Shown: positions 48,029 to 63,525 of the stretch, one piece after another
How positions within the stretch are numbered: the first letter of the stretch is position 1
How the letters are laid out: every line of letters begins with the position of its first letter
Origin: Proteromonas lacertae
Lineage: Eukaryota
Assembly: GCA_002245135.1 (NCBI GenBank)
Contig: NGBS01000882.1
Span: forward strand, 124,001-188,000
Direction: 5' to 3'
Length of the DNA stretch: 64,000 bases
Made by a program: the position numbers and the translations under genes
The notes under the pieces: model-generated
What the model was told of the DNA's origin: nothing
What the model saw: the letters and a program-made list of their open reading frames with translations, nothing else
Database searches by the model: none

Positions 48029-48300
48029 TAAAGAGATAAGATTATTAAATAGTTAAAATTACTAGAACAGTTTATGTAATTTATATGTTTAATGTTAATA
48101 TTGTTGAATAATTTCTATATAATGTTTTGAACAGGGCTGTATAAAAATTATCAAGCTAAATGTATTAACATCTATTTTATTCCTGATGTTATCAACTCTC
48201 CATCCAGACATCTAGACACAATTAAATAATTAGTTATAATTGTACAAATTGTTTACAATTTGATAAATATCTATCCCGATAAGGAAGTGTCTAGAGATGG

Positions 48301-48917
48301 TGTTGTACTCCGTTGAGCTAATTGTGCCGTTGAGTGTTAAGAAGACTTTTTTCAATTCTAATATCATAAACGTAACCTCTGGCCCTTCAATATTACTAAT
48401 CAACGCTTTGTTTTCCAAAATAGTTACGTTGGCCTAATATCGTATATTCGTGTTTAGGTTCCTGTTCTGGAAACACTTTTTATTTTTATATTATTTTAAA
48501 AGCTTATAATAATAGTAGACATCGAGATAAAGGTTTTAAATAGAAAAGGAATACCTACTAATTGCATTTACCTGTTTAAAATTTATTTTTAAAAAACCGG
48601 CTTGAATGAGGCTTGAATAGATTTTTTATTCTTTCGTTTTTAAGTGTCTTAACATCTAAATATGTGTGATTTAATTGCTTAAACTAATGTATTTTTAACT
48701 CTAGTAGTGATTGAAGCAAAAAAATAAAAACTAAAATTATAATTGTTTTCAATATGTTGGGATAAAGTTCAAAATAATATATATCGCAGATGCAGCTTAT
48801 ATGACAAAGTAAGATTATATTTGCATATAACTCGCCATCAAACCACACACTATCATTTTAGAATTGAAAAAAGTCTTCTTAACGCTCAACGGCGCATTTA
48901 GCTCAACGGCGCATAAC
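48301..48917. mobile_element. Non-autonomous TIR element A (~620 bp, ~60-bp TIRs); right tip interrupted by element B
   Basis: Left tgttgtactccgttgagc...aagaagacttttttcaattcta is the imperfect reverse complement of tagaattgaaaaaagtcttcttaacgctcaacggc...cataac at 48859-48917; no TSD found. Confidence 0.75.
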
Positions 48918-49539
48918 TGTTGTTCCCCGTATGGCGGAAATCCCCGTATGGCGGAACTCTATATTGCAGAATGATTCAATCAAAACTAATATGATATTCA
49001 TGATGTTCGGAGTTAGTTATTAACAAATATATAGTTAGTTTGTCATATGACCTACATCTGTGATATACTTATTTATGAACTTCATTATTATCAATATTAA
49101 ACTAATTTTTGTATATTTTCTATTATAATGTATCAGTCACTACTACAGTCTAAAATACATTATCTGATATAAATAGAATTCACTATTTTTAATGTTAAGG
49201 AGGTTAAAAAAGAAAAAAGAAAAAATAAGTTCAAGCCTCGCTCAAGCCTGCTCTTTAATTTCCTTTTTTACTACCTTAACATTAAAATTATTGTATTCTA
49301 TTCATATCAGATAATGTATTTTAGACTGTAGTAGTGACTGATACATTAAAATAGAAAATATACAAAAATTAGTTTAATATTGATAATAATGAAGTTCATA
49401 AATAAGTATATCACAGATGTAGGTCATATGACAAACTAACTATATATTTGTTAATAACTAACTCCGAACATGATGAATATCATAATAGTTTTGATTGAAT
49501 CATTCTGCAAAATAGATTTCCGCCATACGGGGAACAACA
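48918..49539. mobile_element. Foldback MITE B (622 bp, ~275-bp TIRs, TGT...ACA ends, 6-bp TSD CATAAC)
   Basis: Starts tgttgttccccgtatggcggaa and ends ttccgccatacggggaacaaca; arms nearly identical; CATAAC at 48912-48917 and 49540-49545. Confidence 0.93.
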
Positions 49540-49704
49540 CATAACAACATATAATAAACAAACACCATTTCAATATATGATATTAATTTCATTAATTATT
49601 ATATTATAATTATCAATCTTCTTCATCCACATCTACTACGTCAAGCTTGTTATGTTTTAAAAGCATAATTAGCTGCTTTTTTTCGTATTCTTTTTTTTCT
49701 CTTT

Positions 49705-50117
49705 TGTTGTTCCCAGTATGGCGGAACTCTATATTGCAGAATTATTTAATCAAAACTAATATGATATTCATGATGTTCGGAGTTAGTTATTAACAAACAT
49801 ATAGTTAGTTTGTCATATGACCTACATCTATTATATACTTATTTATGAACTTCAATATCATCAATATTAAACTAATTTTCTTATATTTTCTATTTTAATG
49901 TATCAGTCACTACTACAGTCTAAAATACATTATCTAATATGAATAGAATACATTATTTTTAGTACCAGCTTTTTTATTTCTTTTTTACAGAAACTGTTAC
50001 TAAATTTATTGTAATATATTCATATTAGATAATAATGTATTTTAGACTGTAGTAGTGACTGATATATTAAAATAGAAAATATAAGAAAATTAGTTTAATA
50101 TAGATAATAATGAAGTT
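49705..50117. mobile_element. Second copy of the MITE B family, right arm truncated
   Basis: Starts tgttgttcccagtatggcggaactctatattgc (direct copy of the B left arm); inverted arm ~50010-50117 stops abruptly where a new tgttgt begins at 50118. Confidence 0.85.
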
Positions 50118-50460
50118 TGTTGTGCGTTTGTCTACCAGACACTTTCAAAACAAACTATATACATATTCTTACTTGTCTTGATGAAAAATTGTTACTTTTA
50201 TACTTACTTTGTCATATAACATACATCTATGAGTAACTATTAATTGTCATAATATTGAATAAAAACTATCAAAATATATTCTAGAAATTATGTATATTCC
50301 AAATTTTATGTTTTTATTGACATATAATGTCTAAATGAGAAGTGTCAGTTACACAGGAATTAAGAATTGTACCCCTTCTGACGTCATTTTTAATTTAAAA
50401 TTTCATTTTCTTCAACTTTTTTGTTTGTATGTTTTTTTGATTCAGTCAAAGAGAAAAAAT

Positions 50461-52739
50461 GAATTGCAGCAGAAACTTTGAAGAATGTTATAAAATTCTA
50501 TCAAGATAAGAAGATATTTCAAAAAAGAAAAATCAAGCTTGTCAAACTTGACAGTTTTTTTTTAATTTCAGAAAATCAAAATGTAAGCACTATATATATA
50601 TATATATATTATTATTATTATTATTATTATCAAAATATTTACTTTATATTATTTATAAACTGTATAATACTATCATGTACAGCGAAAGGTATAGAAGCAT
50701 CACTATTCTATGAAGATAAAGTAGATGTAATTGATTTTGGTGATAAATTTATTAACAGATAAGCTGAAAGCGCATTTTAATAGAAAATCGAGGTTTAAGA
50801 AGTCAAAGATTAACTAGGCCCAATTATAGAGTAGAAAAAATAATATATCAAATATACAGCAGAATAGTGTTGATTTAGACTTTAGGAGAAAAAATGTATT
50901 AATTAGAAGAAAAAAAGCTCAAGCTCAAGATTTAGATATTGGTTGAAGTATCACTTACCAATGAAGGATCAATTAAACCAAATGTAATAATTACTCCACC
51001 AAGGTGAATTAGATATAGAAGAAAGTGTAACAATCAAAGTATCTTATACAAGTTCAACTCTTGGTGAATTTAGTGATCATTTTGAATTTGCATTAAAAGG
51101 AGCAACTAATAATGTGGTATTAACAATAAAAGGACATGTAGTTGGTCCAACATTCTTCTTTAATAAGAATAAACTAGATTTTGGTATTGTAAGTTATGCA
51201 TTTTTAAACTCATCTGATTTGATATTAAGAAATACTTCCTCTGTTACATTTATATTCAATTTGCTAGTTTCTCAAGATGGTAATTACTTAAACAAAGAAT
51301 TCGAAATAATTCAAGCAGTAGCAACAGTATTACCAGAAGGAGAAGAGAAAATCAAAATCAATTTCATATCTCAAACAATAAAAGTATATGATTATTGTTT
51401 AGCAATTGATATTGAAAGTGTAGGTGAAGCTTTATTAACAATTCCAATAAGTGCTGAATGTCGAGTAGCTGAAGTAGAATTATTAGAAGAATCATTGAAA
51501 TATGGAGATTGTTATTTAAGATATACTTATTATCGAACTTTAACATTAAAGAATAAATCCAATTTAAGTGCTCAATTTGAAAACAGAACAAGATGAAAGA
51601 AGTAAATCGATTGGTAGTTATTTCCCTGATCCAGCTAAAGGTGTAATTGGACCAATGGCAACTCAAATGATTAAAGTTTAATTAAATCCTGAGAAATTAG
51701 GTGATATGAGAATTCCATTATATATTCAAATAATTGGCAGTCAATATCCTCCATTGGTATTAGTATTAGAAGCAAATGGACTTGGACCAGTGATAAAATC
51801 TACTTTAAATCATATAAAATTTGGTGATATAACTTGTTTAGATACTCATACAAAAGAATTTACAATAACTAATCCAACTTCAATTCCAGCTTTTTATAAA
51901 TTAGATTTTGAACGAGGATTTTATTTTAATACTGATATAGTTGATGGTATATTACAAAGTAAAGAATCTCAAAAGATAGTAGTTAGTTGTATGTTGGAAG
52001 ATGTATCAGCTTATAAAGATACAATATACATAGCAGCAACTGAAGGAGATAGTGCAATTCTTCCAGTTACAGCTAAATGTATAATAACAACAATATTTTG
52101 AGAAGATCCAGTAGATGTAATTGATTTTGGTGATCAATTCACAAACAGAACAATCGAAAGAGTATTTTTATTAGAAAATCGAGGTTTAAGAAGTCAAAGA
52201 TTAACTAGGATAAATCAAACTGCAGCAGAAAAAGAAAAATCTTTTAAAGCCAATAAATTAAAGATGGAAAGTGAAATGAATTCAAACCTTATGAAGTTAC
52301 ATTTACAATAACTCCCAATGTAATCGAATTAAAACCCAATACTGCTTGAAGTTTTGTAACATCTGGAAGTTGTGAAAAACCCTGTGAAATGATGAAAATG
52401 TTTTCTTGTTTGAGGAAATTTGATGGAGAAATAAGAAATAATGAAGCAAAAGAAACCGAAGTAAAAGTGATCTTTATGAATCCATTAATTCAATGTTCTG
52501 AAGAGAAAATCGAAGTTCAAAGTAAGACAGTTGTATTTAAGAATATATCAACATTGAGTTTAGATGTGATAATAAGTATAGCAGCTCCATTATTATTGAG
52601 TATGAATGAATTCCATTTAGAACCAAATGAATCAATGAATGTGACAGTGGAATTTGATCCAAATTATAAAGATGATAAAATCTCATGTAAAATAAATGGA
52701 ATATTGAATTTAAGATATGAAGATCATAATAATGAATAT
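50461..52739 (+). pseudogene. HYDIN: Decayed internal fragment of HYDIN (axonemal central-pair protein)
   Basis: LTIKGHVVGPTFFFNKNKLDFGIVSYAF...RNTSSV...QDG...KEFEI and further ASH/Ig-like repeats (IKFGDI.CL, IDFGD, VEFDP.YKDD); in-frame TAA/TGA stops (~51679, ~52100, ~52347) plus frameshifts; no start or end of the gene. Confidence 0.75.
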
Positions 52740-52841
52740 TAGGGTGAAATAGAACACTGTTCCATTTCACCCTATGTGTTTTTGATCCAAAAAAATAGCC
52801 GTTTCAATGTGTTCTATTTCACCCTATGGTTTTTTCACCCT
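52740..52841. repeat. Junction palindrome with iterated TTTCACCCT motif
   Basis: tagggtgaaat-a-gaaca-c-tgttc-c-atttcacccta (52740-52774), another gtgttctatttcacccta at ~52809-52826 and tttcaccct at ~52833-52841. Confidence 0.85.
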
Positions 52842-53202
52842 TAGAAACATAATTAGACAATAATAAATACATCAATCGATTTCTTTATTTATGCTGGGCT
52901 CATATATGCCCTTAGTTTGACTTTCTGATCATAATCGAAATCTAATTTTCTTAAAAAATTCAAAAACAATAATAGATAGGATGGCCACCATACTGTGTGA
53001 TATGACAACATGTGGTGACCATCCTATGTAATAAAAAACAAAACAAAAAAATGGAGTTCAAGTCAAATCTCGAAACGCATCTATTTTTCAATTATTGAAA
53101 TTTCTTATAAGACTTGCTATAATGCTAATTAATTATGTAAATTATGAAAACAACACTCCCACAGAAACACAATCTATCATTTGAACTAATTAGGACCAGA
53201 GA

Positions 53203-54166: not shown

Positions 54167-55453
54167 ATGTTTAGCACTAATAGTTACGATCCACATTTAT
54201 ACAGCTCATATAGCAACCAAAACCCATATCCTGTCAAACCGTTACCTACAAATGGTAACTTATCACTTGCAACATATATTAACCATGGAGCACCGAATAT
54301 TACACATCCAACAAGAGAGGCTTCGTATGAAGACCAAATGTCAAACCAAATTGCCCAATATCGATCACGCTTAGATGAGCTATATAAAAAATATTATTAC
54401 CTCAATGAAAATGAATTTGTCAAAATGACACAACATTTGTCTAGTATGAATGACATAGCTCCACCACCAGATGTAGTACGTGAATACTTAAGGAGACAAC
54501 CTGGAAAACAAATTGTTGATTTCAAATATAAAAAAAATAATCCATTTGCAACTATCAAAAAGCCAGGGTACTTCCAAATGGATATAGTGTTTTTCTTACC
54601 TGATATGGAACATTTGTATTTTATCGAAATGAATTCAAGAAAAGTATGGGCAATATTTATGCCTAATAAATATGGTGATATTACATTGGATGCATTTCAG
54701 AAGTGGTATTATGAAACAGATGCTTATGGAAACAAAACACATAAAAATGTGGTAAGTATCCTATCAGATGCTGATGCTAGTTTTTCAAATATCAAGAAGT
54801 TATGTGATGCTGAAGGAATATCATATTTTCAAAAAGATAGTTCAGAGCATAAAATAGAGTCATTATTGGATAGATCAGTGAGTGTGTTAAAAAGATTGTT
54901 GTACAAACACTTGGTGGATCTGGGATATGATGCACCTACATATATGGCAGATATTGATCACAATGATAAGCATATTATACCAGATATGAATTATAAATTA
55001 AAACTCGATAGTATAATACAGGAAGTGATAGATGACTATAACAACAAGCCATTACCAGGAATTAAAGGATATACCCCAAATGAGGTATTCCATAGTCCAG
55101 AATTACAAAAACAAATATTACAAAAATCAATTAACTACAACTTAAAGAATTATGAAAAATTGGATCATACTGGTCAAAATTTCGAAGTAGGTGATTTGGT
55201 GAGATTCAAAGAGAGAAGACGTAAAATGGATAAGAACATATACTGGTCAGACAATGTATATAAGATAATCAAGAAAAATCGATATTCATACAATTTAGGT
55301 GATATCAATGGGAATGACATTCAAGGTTTTTCATTAATTCGATTCAAACACTATGAGTTGCAGTTAGTGAGAAAAGATGATGCACCAACCACATGGTTTA
55401 GAAAAATACTGGAGAGACCCAAGAGAAAGAAGGGAGACAAATCAATATTGTAA
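54167..55453 (+). CDS. Polinton/Maverick-type retroviral-like (rve) integrase
   Basis: GYFQMDIVF (D), ILSDADASF (D), LLDRSVSVLKRLL (third acid), YNNKP...GYTPNEV, and the C-terminal FEVGDLVR...WSDNVYKI...YNL.DING..I...FKHYELQLV module. Confidence 0.9.
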   Translation: MFSTNSYDPHLYSSYSNQNPYPVKPLPTNGNLSLATYINHGAPNITHPTREASYEDQMSNQIAQYRSRLDELYKKYYYLNENEFVKMTQHLSSMNDIAPPPDVVREYLRRQPGKQIVDFKYKKNNPFATIKKPGYFQMDIVFFLPDMEHLYFIEMNSRKVWAIFMPNKYGDITLDAFQKWYYETDAYGNKTHKNVVSILSDADASFSNIKKLCDAEGISYFQKDSSEHKIESLLDRSVSVLKRLLYKHLVDLGYDAPTYMADIDHNDKHIIPDMNYKLKLDSIIQEVIDDYNNKPLPGIKGYTPNEVFHSPELQKQILQKSINYNLKNYEKLDHTGQNFEVGDLVRFKERRRKMDKNIYWSDNVYKIIKKNRYSYNLGDINGNDIQGFSLIRFKHYELQLVRKDDAPTTWFRKILERPKRKKGDKSIL

Positions 55454-55504
55454 CGAATAAATTTTTATTATGCTATATATTGTATATGTTGTTTTATTAT
55501 TATT

Positions 55505-55694
55505 GGGCATTGGATAGACTAGCTACGATGAGGGCTGCGTTTCTAATTTATAATTATTTATTTATTTATTAAATTAATTTCACAAGGAATTTATGGAAGT
55601 TTAATAATTTCTACTTGGATGTGTTGTTTAATATTGCGCCATTGAAATTCGGCTTGAATCATCCTGGCACGGTATATCTAAATGCCCTTTTTTT
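55505..55694 (+). ncRNA. Putative Pol III small RNA 1 (~185 nt, VA-RNA-like), viral
   Basis: GGGCATT/AATGCCC terminal stem extended by GCTA/TGGC, GATGA/TCATC and GGCTG/CGGCT pairings; ends in T7; no internal TTTT. Confidence 0.6.
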
Positions 55695-55701
55695 ATTTAA
55701 T

Positions 55702-55795
55702 TGGGATCTGATAGACTGTGCAAGGAAAAAAGAGTCATGCAGCTGGCATTAGTGGTTCGATTCCTAGCACAGACTATTAGTAATCCCATTTTTTT
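55702..55795 (+). ncRNA. Putative Pol III small RNA 2 (~90 nt, VA/vault-like hairpin), viral
   Basis: Stems TGGGAT/ATCCCA, CTGATAG/CTATTAG, CTGTGC/GCACAG, AGGAA/TTCCT; consensus B box GGTTCGATTCC at 55754-55764; ends in T7. Confidence 0.75.
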
Positions 55796-55854
55796 AATTT
55801 CTTTTTTTAAATATTTTATTATACATATACATATAGTATATTCTATTTTTATAT

Positions 55855-56265
55855 ATGCTTACACTACCACCACAGATTGAATATAAATTACCAGAACTTG
55901 AATCCAAGGTAACAAAGAAATATCATTTAAGTGGTCCAGACATATACTTGGATTTGTATAGCCTACAATTCCTTATATTTTTTTATCATCGAAAACCTAT
56001 ATATCAATGGTATTTTGAGTTAACACACAAAATGATTAACATGATCATGAGTCAACGTTTGATATTAGTGTTTGTAGGTCCTTGTGACTTAGGAAATAGA
56101 GATTATCCGAAAGTTACATATACACCAACAATGAAAAAAGTAATCATTAGAATGCCACAAAGATGTTTTAATGGTAAGATGCCAATATTCTTCAAATGTA
56201 CTCATATGGATACAGAGATGATAAATATATTGAAACTCATACAATATTTCACCACACATAAATAA
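55855..56265 (+). CDS. Viral hypothetical protein (136 aa)
   Basis: Intact ATG-TAA ORF flanked by AT-rich spacers. Confidence 0.6.
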   Translation: MLTLPPQIEYKLPELESKVTKKYHLSGPDIYLDLYSLQFLIFFYHRKPIYQWYFELTHKMINMIMSQRLILVFVGPCDLGNRDYPKVTYTPTMKKVIIRMPQRCFNGKMPIFFKCTHMDTEMINILKLIQYFTTHK

Positions 56266-56296: not shown

Positions 56297-56800
56297 TTAT
56301 ATTAATCCAAATTGTTTTTTCATTAACCTAATTTTTGCTTCACCCACTATTGTATTATAGTCAGTAGCCTTTTTGAAACTACACTGATCTCTTAAAATAT
56401 TTTTCAAAAAATTAATAGCAAAAAAACCACAGTTGGCAGTATTTGAATTTTGGATTCTGTACTCCATTGATTTTAAGTTCATACTTTTCATTATGATACT
56501 TCTTTAATTTTTTCAAATTTTTTTTAAATTCTTCCAAGTGTTGAGGATCTTCACCAAATGAATCATAGTACAGGAATTGCTTTCTTGATATTGTCAACTA
56601 CTAAAGCAACCCAATGACCTATAGAATCAGGGCTAGCTTGTGTGGTGAGTGTATTGATTATGATTCCCCATTGATTCTTCTTTTTGGGTATAGGAAGTAC
56701 AAGCTCGTCCCAGCAGAACACTCCCATGAACTTTCCATGGAAATTATTGAACTCATTTTTCACAATTAACTCTATATCAAAATTCGATAAGGCATCTGAA
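56297..56800 (-). CDS. Adenain-like (clan CE) cysteine maturation protease domain; two indels
   Basis: LSNFDIE...FMGVFCWDEL...IIINT...GHWVAL (His), YYDSFG (Asp), IQNSNTANCGFFAINFL (Gln, Cys) across three frames. Confidence 0.88.
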
Positions 56801-59383
56801 GTGATACTGTTATACAAAACTTTCCTACGTGAAATTAATTTCTTTACTTTTTTATTATTTCCATTACCTATTCCAAAGTAACTCATAGCTTCACTGAGTT
56901 GTTTTGCTTGATCTAAATTACTCACTGCTCTACCAAAATTAGTGAGTGAACTTGGAATTGTTTGCTGTGAACGTTTCACGTAGTTATCCATTTTGATTGC
57001 ATTCTTGTGTTGATATGGTGTTGGTTTTAACCAGTTTAATAAACCACCTGCATCTAGCAAACCAAAACAAGCAGTCAATGCACTGAATACTGTTCCTATA
57101 CCTGCAACAGTTTGTAATGTACCTGTTGGATCAGCTGCAACAGCAGTTTTTGCCATTGATGGCATAGCTTTTGATAATTCACTGATACCTTTAACTGCTG
57201 CTGCAGCAGTTGTTGCATCACCTCCATTTGCAGCTGCAGCTACAGTTGCTGCTGTTTTTAATGTATCACCTACATTTTTTGCATCTATATTTCCAATATT
57301 AGAAAATTTGTAGAAGAATGGAACTAATTGAAATAAGTATCGAACATATGGATGAGTATTGAACATAAATGAAACACCAAAGTTATACAACAAGTCTACA
57401 GGTAACCATGATTTTTGAATTGCTTCAGGTAACATTGACTTAACTTTTTCTGAATTACCATAATACAAATCAGTGATAGCAGGTAATCTACCACCTGACA
57501 GCATACGAATTATTTCATAGTAGTCGAAAATGAAGTACCACATTACATACAAGAACCCTGATGTTGGTAGTTTAGATTTTTTCCATAACCAATAAGCCTA
57601 AACATGTCATTACTATTGCACGAACATATTTCATTGCATGATCTACTTCAAACATTTGAGGAGTAACTCCACCTACCAAATATGACTTCATTGTATAGTA
57701 TATTTGTGGAAATATCCTAAATACATTCTCTACACACAGGAACAAATTACCAGCAAAACCCATAAAATCAGATTCACGTAATGAATCAAGTGCTTTTTGA
57801 AATTGTGAATTTTCAAATTGTGCCCATGAACTACAAGCAGTTTTCACTAAACCAATAGCTATTTCATATTTTTGTTTATTATCTGCATTCACCCACTCTT
57901 GAGGAAGTGAGTGACCTAACTTCTCTCTGTTATAATCAAAGTTAATGAAATCTCTACTATTCTGTGATGCTATTTCATTCAGTTCTCTATATTTATCTTC
58001 ATTAATTAATGTACACTGTCCTTCACCCATATCTATAGCACTATTCATCAGTTCTTGATTTTTTGGATCTAATGCCCATCTATAAAATTTTGATCTTTCT
58101 AATATCTCTGGATCATCCATATATCTTTGTGCCTTTTGATTATTCAATGCAATATATTCTTTTACTTTTTCAGCTCGATTCGGATCAAAATTATATGGAT
58201 CTGAATATTGATTGATCTTACTTACTCCATCAACTAATTCATTTTGCAAATACTCCTGCTGTAGTAATAGTTTGTTATAATATTCTATTGCATCTTTATC
58301 ATTACCTGTTAATTTATCCCAAGTTGAGGTCAACCAATCTTGTCTATAATTTTTATAGGCTGCTAATTGAGGATTCTTTTCTATAATCTCTTGTAATGAT
58401 TTATAATTTTGTAATTTAGGAAATTTTTGTAACAAAGGATCTGTAACTCTATTCATTCCATTATCATATGCCTGAACATCTGCTTCTGTAACATATTCAG
58501 GCCAATTCAAAAGATAGCTTCTTGGATTAGATGTATCTAATGTTGCTAATGGGAATGTTCCTCTTAAATGTCCTTTTTTATGTTCACGATCTAGCATATC
58601 ATAAAAATTAATATGATAATTGTTAGGCAACAAAGAAGCATAATTATTAGTTAAAGCATATTGAACTTCTTTTCGAGCTTGTCTATTCAAACCTGGACTA
58701 AATAATTTATCATAATTCCAATTATAATCATATCCTACAGTTTCTTTTGGTATATATGGTTGAATATATTCTGGTATTTGACTTGGCTGTAATTGTGATG
58801 TTCCATTATAAGCAGCACTAGCAGCATCATACATTTGTTGTCTTGGATTAGTAATAATGACATGCTCATTAGGACCAACACTTTGACCCACTCTTAATGG
58901 TATAATACCACTATTACCACCTAATTTCTTAGTAGCCAAGAGATGCCTCCGTGGGATACTCTCTAATTTTAGTTTATTTCTTCTGTGATGTTTCTTATGT
59001 TTGAAATGAACATGTTTTCTTCTACCTGAACCTGTCTTTGGATATCCATCTAAAGACATACCAAATAAACCATAATTTACTTTTGGCCATAAATGATATT
59101 CACTACCCATACCATTAATTAAATTACACACATCTGATCGTGCTTCTGGAACACTACGACCACATTGATATTTGAAATAATGTAAGTAATCTGCCAATTG
59201 ATCTATTGTTCCACCATAGCTGGAATACTTTGATATAATATCTAATGGCAATCCTACATTTTTACATACATTTTCTAAATCTTGTTTTGTATTATTCATA
59301 ACCATTTGCTTAACTGATTCATAATCATATTGATTAATCAAAAATGGTTGTAATTTTTCCATAATAGCATCTACATTATATCT

Positions 59384-59425
<42 letters not shown>

Positions 59426-60802
59426 GTTGTTGTATTGGTTGTGTGTTATTTTGCAATGTTGGCTGGGCTGCTGCCGCCGTGGCGGCAGCAGCACCTGCCA
59501 TCATTCCGGCGTAACTTGCAGCATTTGAACTTTGATTATTATAACCTGCCCCAGTTGCAGGTATTGAAGTTGTATTATTAGAACTGGCCCAGTTGTAGTA
59601 CTATTAGTTGTATTATTATAACTGGGAGCAGTTGTAACATTCGATGCTTGAATATTTGAAGTAGCCGGCGCACTCGTCGAATTTGTTGTTGTAGGAGTAG
59701 CACCAAATATACCTCTGAACCAATTGTATATATTACTTAGTGATGTAGTAAAGAAACCCATTATACTATCTAACTTAGAATGAATCCATTGTGACATATC
59801 CATTGGAGGAACTTGTTTCCAACGATTATATACCAAACTGACAAAATTAGGAGTTAACATTGACACAAAAGATGCTGCATTAACCCATGCTGGGGATAAA
59901 CCAAATATCCATTGCATAACACCACTATATCCTATTCCTGCATTTACTAAATACTTTAATATTGCACCAACTGTACTATCAGGAAATAGTATATCAAACA
60001 CTTGTGAAATAGAACCTAATGTCATAGTACATAAGCAGAACTTCACACCAAATTTCAACCAATCGTATGTTGTATTACCTGAGAAATATTTATCAATTTT
60101 TGAAATTAATGACTCTTTTTCTCTTTCTTCCATTGTTGCTATCTTTCTCTGATATTCTTCATTCCTTGCTTTCACTATTTCATTTTCTTGTTGTAATTCA
60201 TACTCGTGATCTTTTTGTGTTGTACCAGCATTATTATTCCATCTTGGATTGGATTGATATGAATTTACATTGTACTGTGATCCCCATTGTTGTAATGGCT
60301 GTCCTTCAATTTGAGATAAAAATGGATTTTGCCATTGATATGTTAAATTCTCTGGTTGAGCATAATAATCTGAGTATGGCTTGTTATACTTACCTATGTT
60401 CCTATAATATCGTCCAAACTGATCTGTGATGCCTGACATATATAATTTGTATTTCATCTCATCAGTCATGAAATTGTTTTTTGTTGCGTTTATATTTGGA
60501 TTAACAGGCTTTGATAATTCCTCTATATCATCCTCATCTCCTATAGTATCATAAAATTTATTGAAACTAGATTTAGGATCATAGATGTCTAATCCATATG
60601 TACCATTGCCTTTGTCAACAATGGCTGTTGGGTTAGCCATGTGACTGAGATCTAGTTTTATTTTTTTGTTATCTTTCACCTTGTTGTAGATGATCTTTTT
60701 CAATTTTCTCTTAAGTGCATTATGATACACAGAGGGATTCTCAAAATCAATTGCTTCTTCTTTTGGTGATGATTGTTGCTTATGCTTTCGTTTAACACCC
60801 AT
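56297..60802 (-). CDS. Probable ~1,500-aa viral polyprotein ending in the protease
   Basis: ORFs of 433, 640 and 329 aa and the protease pieces join with single-base corrections (~59588, ~59424, ~57575, ~56580, ~56459); no AT-rich intergenic spacers between them. Confidence 0.55.
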
Positions 60803-60880: not shown

Positions 60881-61892
60881 TTAACTTTTCTTTCGTTCTA
60901 CAGATTGCCATCCATCATCATCAAAATCAGAATCAAATTCACCATTTTCTTCTTGTTCTTGTTCTTGTTCTTCTTCAAAATCAGATTTAAATTCATCATC
61001 ATCTTCTTCTTCTTTTGGTTTATTAAATTCAATATCTTCATTTTCATCATCATCATCATCTGGCTTTCCATTTGCAATCCATTCTTCATATTGTTTAATA
61101 TTTTGAGCTTCTTCCCACAACTCTTTTATTTTAGTTTTCTGAGCTTCTGTAAAGTCATATTCATCAAATATTTGGTCTATTTGCTTCTTTAGTAAAATTT
61201 TTAACATCGTCAATAGTAATTTCATCATCATTATCATTATCATCATCACCTTTATCATCTTTAACATCAGTTGACGGCTGTACTTTAATATCTGTTTCTG
61301 CTTTAGGAGTAATCAATTTATTCAACTTCTACTATTATATATAAATTAACATGAATTTTATACCATATTGTTGCATTTGTGACATCTTGATTTGGTTAAT
61401 TGGATTACTCATATACTCACCCATCTGCATCCTAGTCTTTGCACTTGCTTGAGCCATTTCATTGTAATTAGGTCTATTCATATTCACATACATGTTAGGA
61501 CCAAACAAATGCTGATCATCAATCTCTCTTAAACTATTAGCAAGTGGTATAGCCATTGCATTACCTTCATGTAATGATGTAGATAACATAGAATCGATTG
61601 CATTCTGTCTCTCTAAAAATTTTTGCTCATCATTCAATTTACGAATATCACCTTCATTAGGAGGAGTGTCTTTAGAATTTATCTTAGTAATCTCATCTTT
61701 TATTTCATTTAAACGACTGTTTCTCATATCCACTAAATCTTTCGCATTTTCTCTATAAAAATTATTATATAAACTCTGATAATATTTGTCATGTCCTTTA
61801 TATCCTTCACCTCTCCGTATCTTCTTCCTTTTGCCTTTGCCTCTCATCCGAGCAAACACAGCAAGCAGTATTTTCTTATTTAGTTTTTTCAT
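60881..61892 (-). CDS. Viral protein with basic N-terminus and very acidic C-terminus; probably one gene split by indels
   Basis: RMRGKGKRKKIRRGEG at the start of ORF 61335-61892; D/E-rich ORF 60881-61267 follows closely on the same strand. Confidence 0.5.
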
Positions 61893-61961
61893 AATAACTT
61901 AATAGAAAATAAATAAACAATTTAATTATAATAATAATGTGTAATATAAGTATTATTAATA

Positions 61962-62579
61962 TTATTGAACATAAACAGGCTCGATAGGCTCGCCTTGTAT
62001 TTCTCTACCTGCAATATCATTACCTAATGGTTTATCTTCTTCTTCTGGTTCTGGTTCTTTTACTTTCTCTATTTTCTCTTTCTTTGGATTTGAACTCTTT
62101 TCTAATTTCTTCATATATTTGCCTAATTGATCTCTGGTTTCTTTCAAAGCTATTTGTAATTCAGCTTTTGTCATACGACTAGGAGGAGGTAATGATGAGT
62201 CCCTATCCTTTTTACTATTTTTTCTACCACCACCACGTTTGGACTTAGGCTCGTCTAAAGCATTTGATTTTTGTTTCTTACTAGATCTTCTTTTGGATCT
62301 CTCATGTGATCTTGATCTTGATCTGGATTTATGGGAGTGTTTTTTACCTTTTATTGATTTTTTATGAGATGATGATCCATCATTCTGTAATATATTGTAT
62401 ATATCCTTTGGAGAGAATTGTGATAGTAATTCATTGATCATAGCATCACTTGGTTCAGCTTCTGTGATTTTTGGTTTGGACATCTTGGAATCATTTTCAT
62501 TTATTGACTCTACTTCACTATCAGACTCATCAGTAGAACTATCATCACTCACATATTCAGTTGATTCAGTATCACTCAT
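61962..62579 (-). CDS. Viral hypothetical protein, acidic N-terminus with RS/K-rich centre
   Basis: Intact 205-aa ORF, SRSRSRSHERSKRRSSKK. Confidence 0.65.
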   Translation of the reverse strand: MSDTESTEYVSDDSSTDESDSEVESINENDSKMSKPKITEAEPSDAMINELLSQFSPKDIYNILQNDGSSSHKKSIKGKKHSHKSRSRSRSHERSKRRSSKKQKSNALDEPKSKRGGGRKNSKKDRDSSLPPPSRMTKAELQIALKETRDQLGKYMKKLEKSSNPKKEKIEKVKEPEPEEEDKPLGNDIAGREIQGEPIEPVYVQ

Positions 62580-62669
62580 TATTTATTTCTATGTTATGAA
62601 AAATAAAATTAACAAAAGAAACAATGAAAATAATAATATAAGTATTATTAGCATTATTAAAAGTCAAGC

Positions 62670-62962
62670 TTACATTCGAGCCACCTTTGATTTTAAATAT
62701 GCATTCAATAATGCTTGTTGATTACTACCACCTCCATTGAATGGTAATCTACCTCTTCCTGACCTACGTCTTCTACGACCAAATCCCATTGTTGATAATC
62801 CATCTGCGATATCATTCTTTCCAAATTCCCTAGCTATTTTGGATGTTATTTTATGATCCTTTCCCAGTTAAATGCTTTGGAACCCCAATTTTTTAACTTA
62901 CCCCAGAAAGAACCACCCCTTCTTCCATAAACGCATCTACGTCTTCTACCACCTTTTGGCAT
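62670..62962 (-). CDS. Small Arg-rich core-like viral protein; indels, missed by ORF track
   Basis: MPKGGRRRR...GGSFWGKLK...DHKITSKIAREFGKNDIADGLSTMGFGRRRRRSGRGRLPF...KVARM-stop. Confidence 0.65.
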
Positions 62963-63021
62963 TATGTTATTTCGAATGAAAATAAAGAAATACGATTAAA
63001 ATAGAAAAAAATAAAATTAGA

Positions 63022-63525
63022 CTAGAAAACTCTAATCTTATTGTCAATATATCGATTATCGAGACTATTACTACTTTTACGTCTTTTACCAGAACCAGTC
63101 TTTTTCTTTGCTAACAAAAATTTCGGTATAGTACTTGGACCACCTTTCGTCCAATTCTTTACAGCAAATGGATTAGCCATTCCACCATTTTTTAAATAGG
63201 GCATGCTGCCTGGACCACCAGTAATTACATTTTTTAATTCCTTTGGTACTCTATTGACACCTAATTTTTTAATTTTATTCCAAAAAGAACCACCACTTAT
63301 ACCACCATCATAATTCCATTCTGCTTGCCCACCTCTTCTTCTACGTTTTCTACCATATCCTACATTGGATACAACATTACCTAAGGCTGGACCTACACCT
63401 GGGATTAAACTAGCTGCTGTTGATAAAATTTTTGTTTTCTTAAAGAAATTCTTTACTCCATCCCAGAACTTGCCTTTACCTATGATATACTTACGATATT
63501 TCGCTTTTGAACTTCTTTTAACCAT
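63022..63525 (-). CDS. Basic core / membrane-lytic-like viral protein with Gly-x-Gly motifs
   Basis: GKGKFWDGVKNFFKKTKILSTAASLIPGVG...VGYGRKRRRRGG...GGSFWNKIKKLG...GSGKRRK. Confidence 0.7.
   Translation of the reverse strand: MVKRSSKAKYRKYIIGKGKFWDGVKNFFKKTKILSTAASLIPGVGPALGNVVSNVGYGRKRRRRGGQAEWNYDGGISGGSFWNKIKKLGVNRVPKELKNVITGGPGSMPYLKNGGMANPFAVKNWTKGGPSTIPKFLLAKKKTGSGKRRKSSNSLDNRYIDNKIRVF

Follow-up and report, generated by a model that had tools for sequence, protein, structure and literature searches.

The VA RNAs of adenoviruses are organized around an apical stem and a central domain with paired tetranucleotides, and a short, rod-like VA RNA exists in an avian adenovirus, a case for which a literature search gave no confirmation. 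VA RNA I and VA RNA II are RNA polymerase III (Pol III) hairpins whose terminal stems bind Dicer and squelch it (PMC2777419, available excerpt). The Pol III-transcribed pre-miRNAs of bovine leukemia virus (BLV) are processed by Dicer without Drosha, and the BLV B boxes sit downstream of the terminator and can act from there (PMC12498455, available excerpt). Some animal viruses are known to encode decoy RNAs made by Pol III, and Polinton-like viruses are widespread in protist genomes.

MELD and Polinton-like viruses have been described from protists, in a study whose available excerpt makes no mention of a Pol III hairpin RNA (PMC8502044), and Polinton-like viruses do carry tRNA and other noncoding RNA genes (PMC12220804, available excerpt). 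A literature search, with most subscription journals and supplements outside its scope, found no description of Pol III hairpin RNAs in Polintons or Polinton-like viruses. An RNA-silencing pathway is reported from oomycetes and brown algae (PMC4791657, PMC6284064, PMC4513859), and a treatment of the RNAi status of Blastocystis was not found in the literature search.

Here we describe two hairpin units in a 64-kb stretch of DNA (the window, meaning the whole 64,000 nt analyzed), for the second of which an original prediction had proposed a hairpin of vault RNA or pre-miRNA size with an internal B box. At about even probability, we read them as tandemly duplicated, virus-encoded small-RNA genes that would be transcribed by host Pol III and whose hairpins would serve as decoys or substrates for a Dicer-type machinery.

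The viral element and its surroundings

The first 52 kb of the window hold dense, AT-rich eukaryotic genes (a kinase, an alpha-2-macroglobulin domain, NAGLU, EGF repeats and HYDIN/CFAP65-like Ig pieces) and a tRNA-Met, and because of this gene content the host is likely a protist. A gene-end motif of the Blastocystis type occurs 11 times in the window, and these occurrences are not at gene ends; a search with host proteins gave no match. Several repeats lie toward the end of this region. A MITE-like cluster at 48300-50240 consists of inverted and direct repeats, nested in one another, that are 250-280 nt long and 90-95% identical; the HYDIN/CFAP65-like Ig-domain gene at 50660-52742 is in pieces with a partial internal duplication, either as a pseudogene or through assembly errors; directly after these pieces, a likely MITE (52741-52827; z -5.5) is bounded by perfect 18-bp terminal inverted repeats and flanked by TA; and at 52970-53033, close to where the virus is presumed to end on the left, a long palindrome (z -5.8) could represent a terminus or an origin.

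From about 53 kb onward, the genes are tightly spaced and viral in kind. An rve-type integrase, recognized through the Atlas and its homologues, is encoded on the plus strand at 54167..55453 as an intact 428-aa ORF that closes with a TAA stop 52 nt before unit 1. The Atlas places it at 0.95 to rve clusters dominated by Preplasmiviricota; it has six close homologues at 42-56%, and further homologues match PF00665, while the window integrase itself has no Pfam match. Directly downstream of unit 2, a 136-aa ORF on the plus strand (55855..56265) has no Pfam match and an uninformative structural model (pLDDT 44). It is followed on the minus strand, at 56297..56856, by an adenain-like clan CE cysteine protease identified by Pfam and similarity, which is spread over three frames in this copy, shares 61% identity with a protein that has PF02902 (P0202) and gives a PF00770 match of its own at E 0.069. 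Within 56297-57543, the first part of the protease is in frame with an upstream 230-aa region, by decay or sequencing error. The frameshifts may mean that this viral copy has decayed or that the assembly is error-prone. The element ORFs scanned in the window gave no Pfam matches to a capsid, packaging ATPase or polymerase, and the element appears to extend past 64000. At 61335-63525 there are small ORFs, basic and rich in glycine, in which stretches of arginine/lysine and repeated segments occur; they have no database match and would resemble protease-processed viral core proteins.

Because they lie between the rve integrase and the protease, units 1 and 2 are located inside an integrated (endogenous) Polinton-like virus.

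The hairpin and its upstream paralog

Unit 2, a predicted Pol III hairpin RNA of ~85 nt plus oligo-U, is delimited by its fold to 55703..55795 on the plus strand, with the likely start at G55703 taken from the terminal stem. As RNA, 55702-55795 folds at -35.5 kcal/mol (z -5.85; 0 of 200 shuffles equally good). From the outside inward, the helices are UGGGAU/AUCCCA (6 bp), CUGAUAG/CUAUUAG (7 bp) after a 2-nt UA bulge, CUGUGC/GCACAG (6 bp) after an A·A mismatch and AGGAA/UUCCU (5 bp) after another, with pair probabilities of 0.75-1.0 across the helices of the unit; the RNA fold thus confirms the four stacked helices of 6+7+6+5 bp, the two A-A mismatches and the 2-nt bulge that had been proposed at the outset. 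The innermost part came out differently: the minimum-energy RNA fold has a fifth 6-bp helix, GAGUCA/UGGUUC, and a 3-bp UGC/GCA helix in place of the suggested ATGC/GCAT stem, which is found in the DNA and antisense folds. The first half of the B box (its first five bases) is paired within the inner 6-bp helix. The whole is a single rod of 33 pairs, and its terminal stem of 24 bp, interrupted by two 1x1 mismatches and the 2-nt bulge, is long and regular enough for a Pol III pre-miRNA of the BLV type, in which the stem spans 22 bp or more with few mismatches.

In fold energy, unit 2 ranks 7th among the 6392 94-nt tiles of the window, and ranks 1-6 all come from a single GC-rich stretch near 59400-59560. 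The surrounding segment (59380-59620), with a CAA tract, a GC-rich alanine-codon palindrome and 38-nt repeats, has the strongest folds of the window; the long minus-strand ORFs on its two sides may be a single gene interrupted by a frameshift. The z-score of unit 2 is not distinctive alone: its antisense strand has z -5.88, unrelated palindromes at 52740 and 52970 have comparable values (-5.5 and -5.8), and the DNA folds of its two strands have equal z.

The feature is stronger than first described because of a second, paralogous hairpin. Unit 1 (55505..55694, plus strand, defined by fold and alignment) is located 15 nt upstream of unit 2, has an outer stem like that of unit 2, an AU-rich interior of ~100 nt and a T7 at 55688-55694, and folds with z -4.15. 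Both units follow a common plan in which a GGG start is matched by a CCC close with T7 within 1 nt after it. They also share GATAGACT at +8/+9 (plus strand, 55710..55717 in unit 2 and 55513-55520 in unit 1), which occupies the expected A-box position with a poor A-box score, and TCCT(A/G)GCAC at an equal distance from the 3' end. Among 20,000 dinucleotide shuffles, 28 and 17 equal the anchored alignments of the arms of the two units, and among 20,000 sequences in which the structure of unit 2 is kept and its pairs are permuted, 1 does; plain local-alignment tests of the arms are weaker (p 0.05 and 0.03).

What is conserved between the units is the outer stem with its mismatches, and the interior differs by ~100 nt. 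In a register of 29 pair columns, set by hand with both predicted folds in view and from two sequences only, which makes the statistics optimistic, 14 columns are the same, 7 have a one-sided and 4 a two-sided change, and 4 are broken; 27 of the 29 columns are paired in each unit, although 20 of 58 positions differ, a level of pairing that random substitution preserves, according to the transition bias assumed, 0 to 144 times in 100,000. Unit 2 lacks both bases of one C-G pair that unit 1 has. In the helix that contains the B-box strand, 6 of 6 pairs survive 7 changes, a result that does not reach significance by itself when the null allows transitions only (13,655 of 100,000). Judged from sequence and predicted fold, unit 1 is a paralog of unit 2. 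Finally, the outer stems contain 10 G·U pairs (3+7) and no certain A·C pair, with one possible; because a DNA palindrome would have no strand preference, this bias favors selection on a plus-strand RNA, with the same polarity as the B box and T7.

Three other readings were considered and rejected. A SECIS element in unit 1 would have a loop far too long, the integrase ends in TAA, and unit 2 lacks the feature; a box C/D reading of unit 1 fails in that the box C-like stretch is engaged in Watson-Crick pairs and that unit 2 has no counterpart; and a resemblance to Y RNA/sbRNA is without Rfam support.

The position of unit 1, which begins on the same strand 52 nt past the integrase stop, also admits a structured 3' end of the integrase mRNA, on the model of Mimiviridae, whose transcripts are polyadenylated at hairpins (PMC4402537, available excerpt), or a leader for the 136-aa ORF. 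A local fold with z at or below -2.2 is present at 5 of 12 gene ends of the element; however, 7 of 12 have no such fold, these values are the best of several windows, and a B box, a TATA at -30 and a duplicated unit are not needed for an mRNA end. We regard this explanation as highly improbable.

Promoter elements and possible tRNA ancestry

Both the B box and the T7 that had been noted for unit 2 are present. The exact B box GGTTCGATTCC, found by motif and matrix scan, lies at 55754..55764 on the plus strand and is partly paired in the inner helix, and the T7, a Pol III-type terminator by sequence, occupies 55789..55795 on the same strand, with a second T7 at 55802. GGTTCGATTCC is the sole exact B box on either strand of the 64-kb window and also its top site under a published B-box matrix, scoring 16.7 of a possible 17.3, whereas the host tRNA-Met scores 10.5 (matrix taken from PMC12498455, available excerpt). 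An exact B box is expected by chance 0.053 times per shuffled 64 kb and appears in 17 of 200,000 shuffles of unit 2; if a single mismatch is tolerated, 6 sites are present in the window versus 2.67 expected. In unit 1, the corresponding stretch, GGCTTGAATCA (55651..55661, plus strand), stands in the same helix register but is degenerate, scores -0.9 and is without the key C.

These chance values bear on a further explanation, namely that the units are a miniature inverted-repeat transposon or a DNA palindrome in intergenic space that contains a B box by accident. The GGG...CCC ends are suggestive, as are the MITE-like repeats in the neighborhood, the equal z of the DNA folds of both strands and the ATT that, in AT-rich DNA, flanks both unit 2 and units 1 and 2 together like a 3-bp target duplication. 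However, an exact B box is rare at the rates given above, T7 follows both units, a second copy is absent from the 64 kb (a single 12-mer of low complexity is shared), and the imperfections of the repeats are G·U pairs confined to one strand, whereas control palindromes show 1:1 and 1:2. We consider a transposon or chance palindrome very unlikely.

In the matrix scan, no A box was found near the 5' end of either unit: unit 2 reaches -0.8 and -1.3 at best and unit 1 reaches -0.35, compared with 11.5 in the host tRNA-Met. An A-box-like site with one mismatch at +16 of unit 1 scores -3.2. The A-box-like 12-mer TGGCATTAGTGG of unit 2 fits a 12-nt A-box variant exactly and scores below -3 on the 11-column matrix; it was noted as overlapping the B box and as too close to be a working A box, and, lying against the B box, it is likewise excluded here. 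The best local A-box matrix scores, 8.3 (55765-55775) and 6.3 (55665-55675), fall just 3' of the B-box position, in the conserved 3' arms of both units. Because unit 2 has no 5' A box, its promoter is not of the standard tRNA type.

A TATA-like sequence, TATATCTA (55673..55680, plus strand), lies within the 3' arm of unit 1 and starts at -30 of unit 2, and another, TATATATT (55474..55481, plus strand), starts at -31 of unit 1. A TATA also starts at -30 of the host tRNA-Met, a loose comparison in that a mature tRNA end differs from a start site; the background is 4-10% per site. The combination of CCC with at least six T occurs at 3 places in the window, two of which are units 1 and 2. The promoter of the units is likely, by prediction, a TATA plus a B box. 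By analogy, the strong B box of unit 2, which lies beyond the terminator of unit 1, may drive unit 1 as well. Such a promoter, with a TATA and a B box possibly common to two genes, would be unusual.

A stronger form of this idea is that the B box is mainly a DNA element, either driving unit 1 from beyond its terminator or acting as a TFIIIC insulator against silencing, with unit 2 transcribed weakly or not at all. A downstream B box is found in yeast U6. Unit 1 has a TATA at -31 and the A-box-like +16 site and no good B box, unit 2 shows the reverse, and downstream B boxes are documented for BLV (PMC12498455, available excerpt). However, the +16 site has the low matrix score given above, and a pure DNA element leaves the 33-pair fold, the G·U pairs and the T7 of unit 2 unexplained. 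It is moreover compatible with transcribed small-RNA genes and does not exclude them; as the main explanation, we find it quite unlikely.

A relic of tRNA origin had been suggested for unit 2. The stretch GCATTAGTGGTT (55745..55756, plus strand), a possible tRNA relic that runs into the B box, agrees at every position with the 5'-terminal 12 nt of a tRNA-Gly(GCC) gene (locus L088), a comparison that is post hoc, being formed after seeing the sequence and starting from a known tRNA, and that involves a tRNA-Gly other than the host's own. A pattern search with the GCATTAGTGGTT segment gave 3 loci, each of which is one and the same tRNA-Gly, beginning at the first matched base; with the first 7 nt free, it gave 8 loci from 6 distinct genes, in which the acceptor strand agrees at 7/7 in one (the same tRNA-Gly) and at 6/7 in one. 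A deletion between two GGTT repeats of such a tRNA-Gly would create the junction of unit 2. A bulged T-arm remnant is a reading equally possible as a tRNA-Gly 5' end. ARAGORN and Rfam detect no cloverleaf, anticodon or T-arm in unit 2, where only 2 pairs close the T-loop-like sequence. A tRNA origin of unit 2 is plausible and unproven.

Searches for relatives through the integrase confirmed no related locus in viral contigs or metagenomes. A first motif scan returned 82 loci that are tRNAs, tmRNA-like or unrelated phage sequence. Among these, 27 (L001 and related gut-phage loci) have in common one identical sequence that is not a tRNA, ends in a motif like a T-loop and is not called by ARAGORN; close variants of it occur in addition. 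None of the 5 loci of a second scan folds like unit 2. A third scan gave at least 117 loci; among the matches listed, 83 of 117 are tRNAs by ARAGORN, and the 1 of 117 with the 5' motif nearby is a tRNA-Gln. Five viral ORFs had no tblastn match in any locus retrieved by the motif scans.

Possible function and comparison with known systems

The exact B box, the T7, the TATA at -30, the G·U bias and the pair-preserving divergence from unit 1 together support the Pol III-type hairpin RNA gene of the original prediction, and units 1 and 2 probably are, or were, transcribed Pol III RNA genes. In the proposed mechanism, TFIIIC would bind the B box of unit 2, the TATA at -30 would substitute for a good A box, and TFIIIB and Pol III would be positioned at G55703. 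Transcription would stop in the T7, yielding a product of ~88-90 nt with a 24-bp interrupted terminal stem and a short 3' oligo-U tail. The least certain step is the last, in which bulk unit 2 RNA would saturate Dicer or export factors during viral activity or, alternatively, would be cut ~22 bp from its base into small RNAs. An anti-silencing role of the units, suggested by analogy, falls somewhat short of an even chance.

The same evidence for transcription and structure would also serve for Pol III RNAs with a job outside RNAi, as tRNA-like or otherwise structured ligands for a host or viral protein such as a translation-stress kinase, La or an export factor. The pattern of conservation, which spares the outer stem and its mismatches and not the interior, is in line with such a ligand, and the hairpin arms have no targets in the 64-kb window above shuffled arms. 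However, the RNA has no cloverleaf or T-arm as a tRNA-like ligand would, and its rod shape and size suit Dicer substrates. We consider a ligand outside RNAi unlikely and retain the decoy or substrate for a Dicer-type machinery as the preferred reading.

The element itself resembles MELD and Polinton-like protist viruses in its rve integrase and adenain-like protease and in its divergent virion genes (PMC8502044, available excerpt). The survey of noncoding RNAs in Polinton-like viruses, which according to its available excerpt relied on Rfam and ARAGORN only (PMC12220804), would miss the present units, which are not tRNAs.

Vault RNAs share with unit 2 a length of ~90 nt, paired ends, a B box in the 3' half and a composite promoter with upstream elements (PMC7058938, available excerpt). 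The units differ from them in having no Rfam match and no box A and in their viral location, and the vault identity entertained for unit 2 is not supported. The BLV pre-miRNAs are similar as clustered hairpins with a Pol III internal promoter and a downstream-acting B box, but the BLV hairpins have several A boxes and a B box outside the transcript, whereas unit 2 includes its B box and has no A box (PMC12498455, available excerpt); BLV also belongs to another class of virus. The miRNA matches of the units in Rfam reach 23 and 19 bits against a cut-off of 70, among three sub-threshold Rfam matches in all.

The adenovirus VA RNAs I and II are similar in being two tandem Pol III-type units of a virus of the Polinton/adenovirus lineage, with an internal B box, a terminal stem and oligo-T (PMC2777419, available excerpt). 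There are also differences: a 5' A box is missing from the units, a VA RNA is about twice as long as unit 2, and unit 2 is a rod without the layout of apical stem and central domain. The VA RNA family model (Rfam RF00102) gave no match at the gathering score or at E up to 10. To our knowledge, the PKR target would not exist in a protist host. The fullest version of the likeness, a protist Polinton-like virus with a true analogue pair of VA RNA I/II that arose from tRNA-Gly remnants and uses one shared B box together with TATA elements, is rather doubtful; if true, Pol III decoy RNAs would possibly be ancestral in the Polinton-adenovirus lineage and would have been aimed at RNA silencing before PKR. 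The duplicated, structure-conserving pair makes a small testable construct for asking whether these viruses counter silencing with RNA and where the VA RNAs originated. Overall, the best reading by analogy is that the two units would work like VA RNA I and II without belonging to the VA family.
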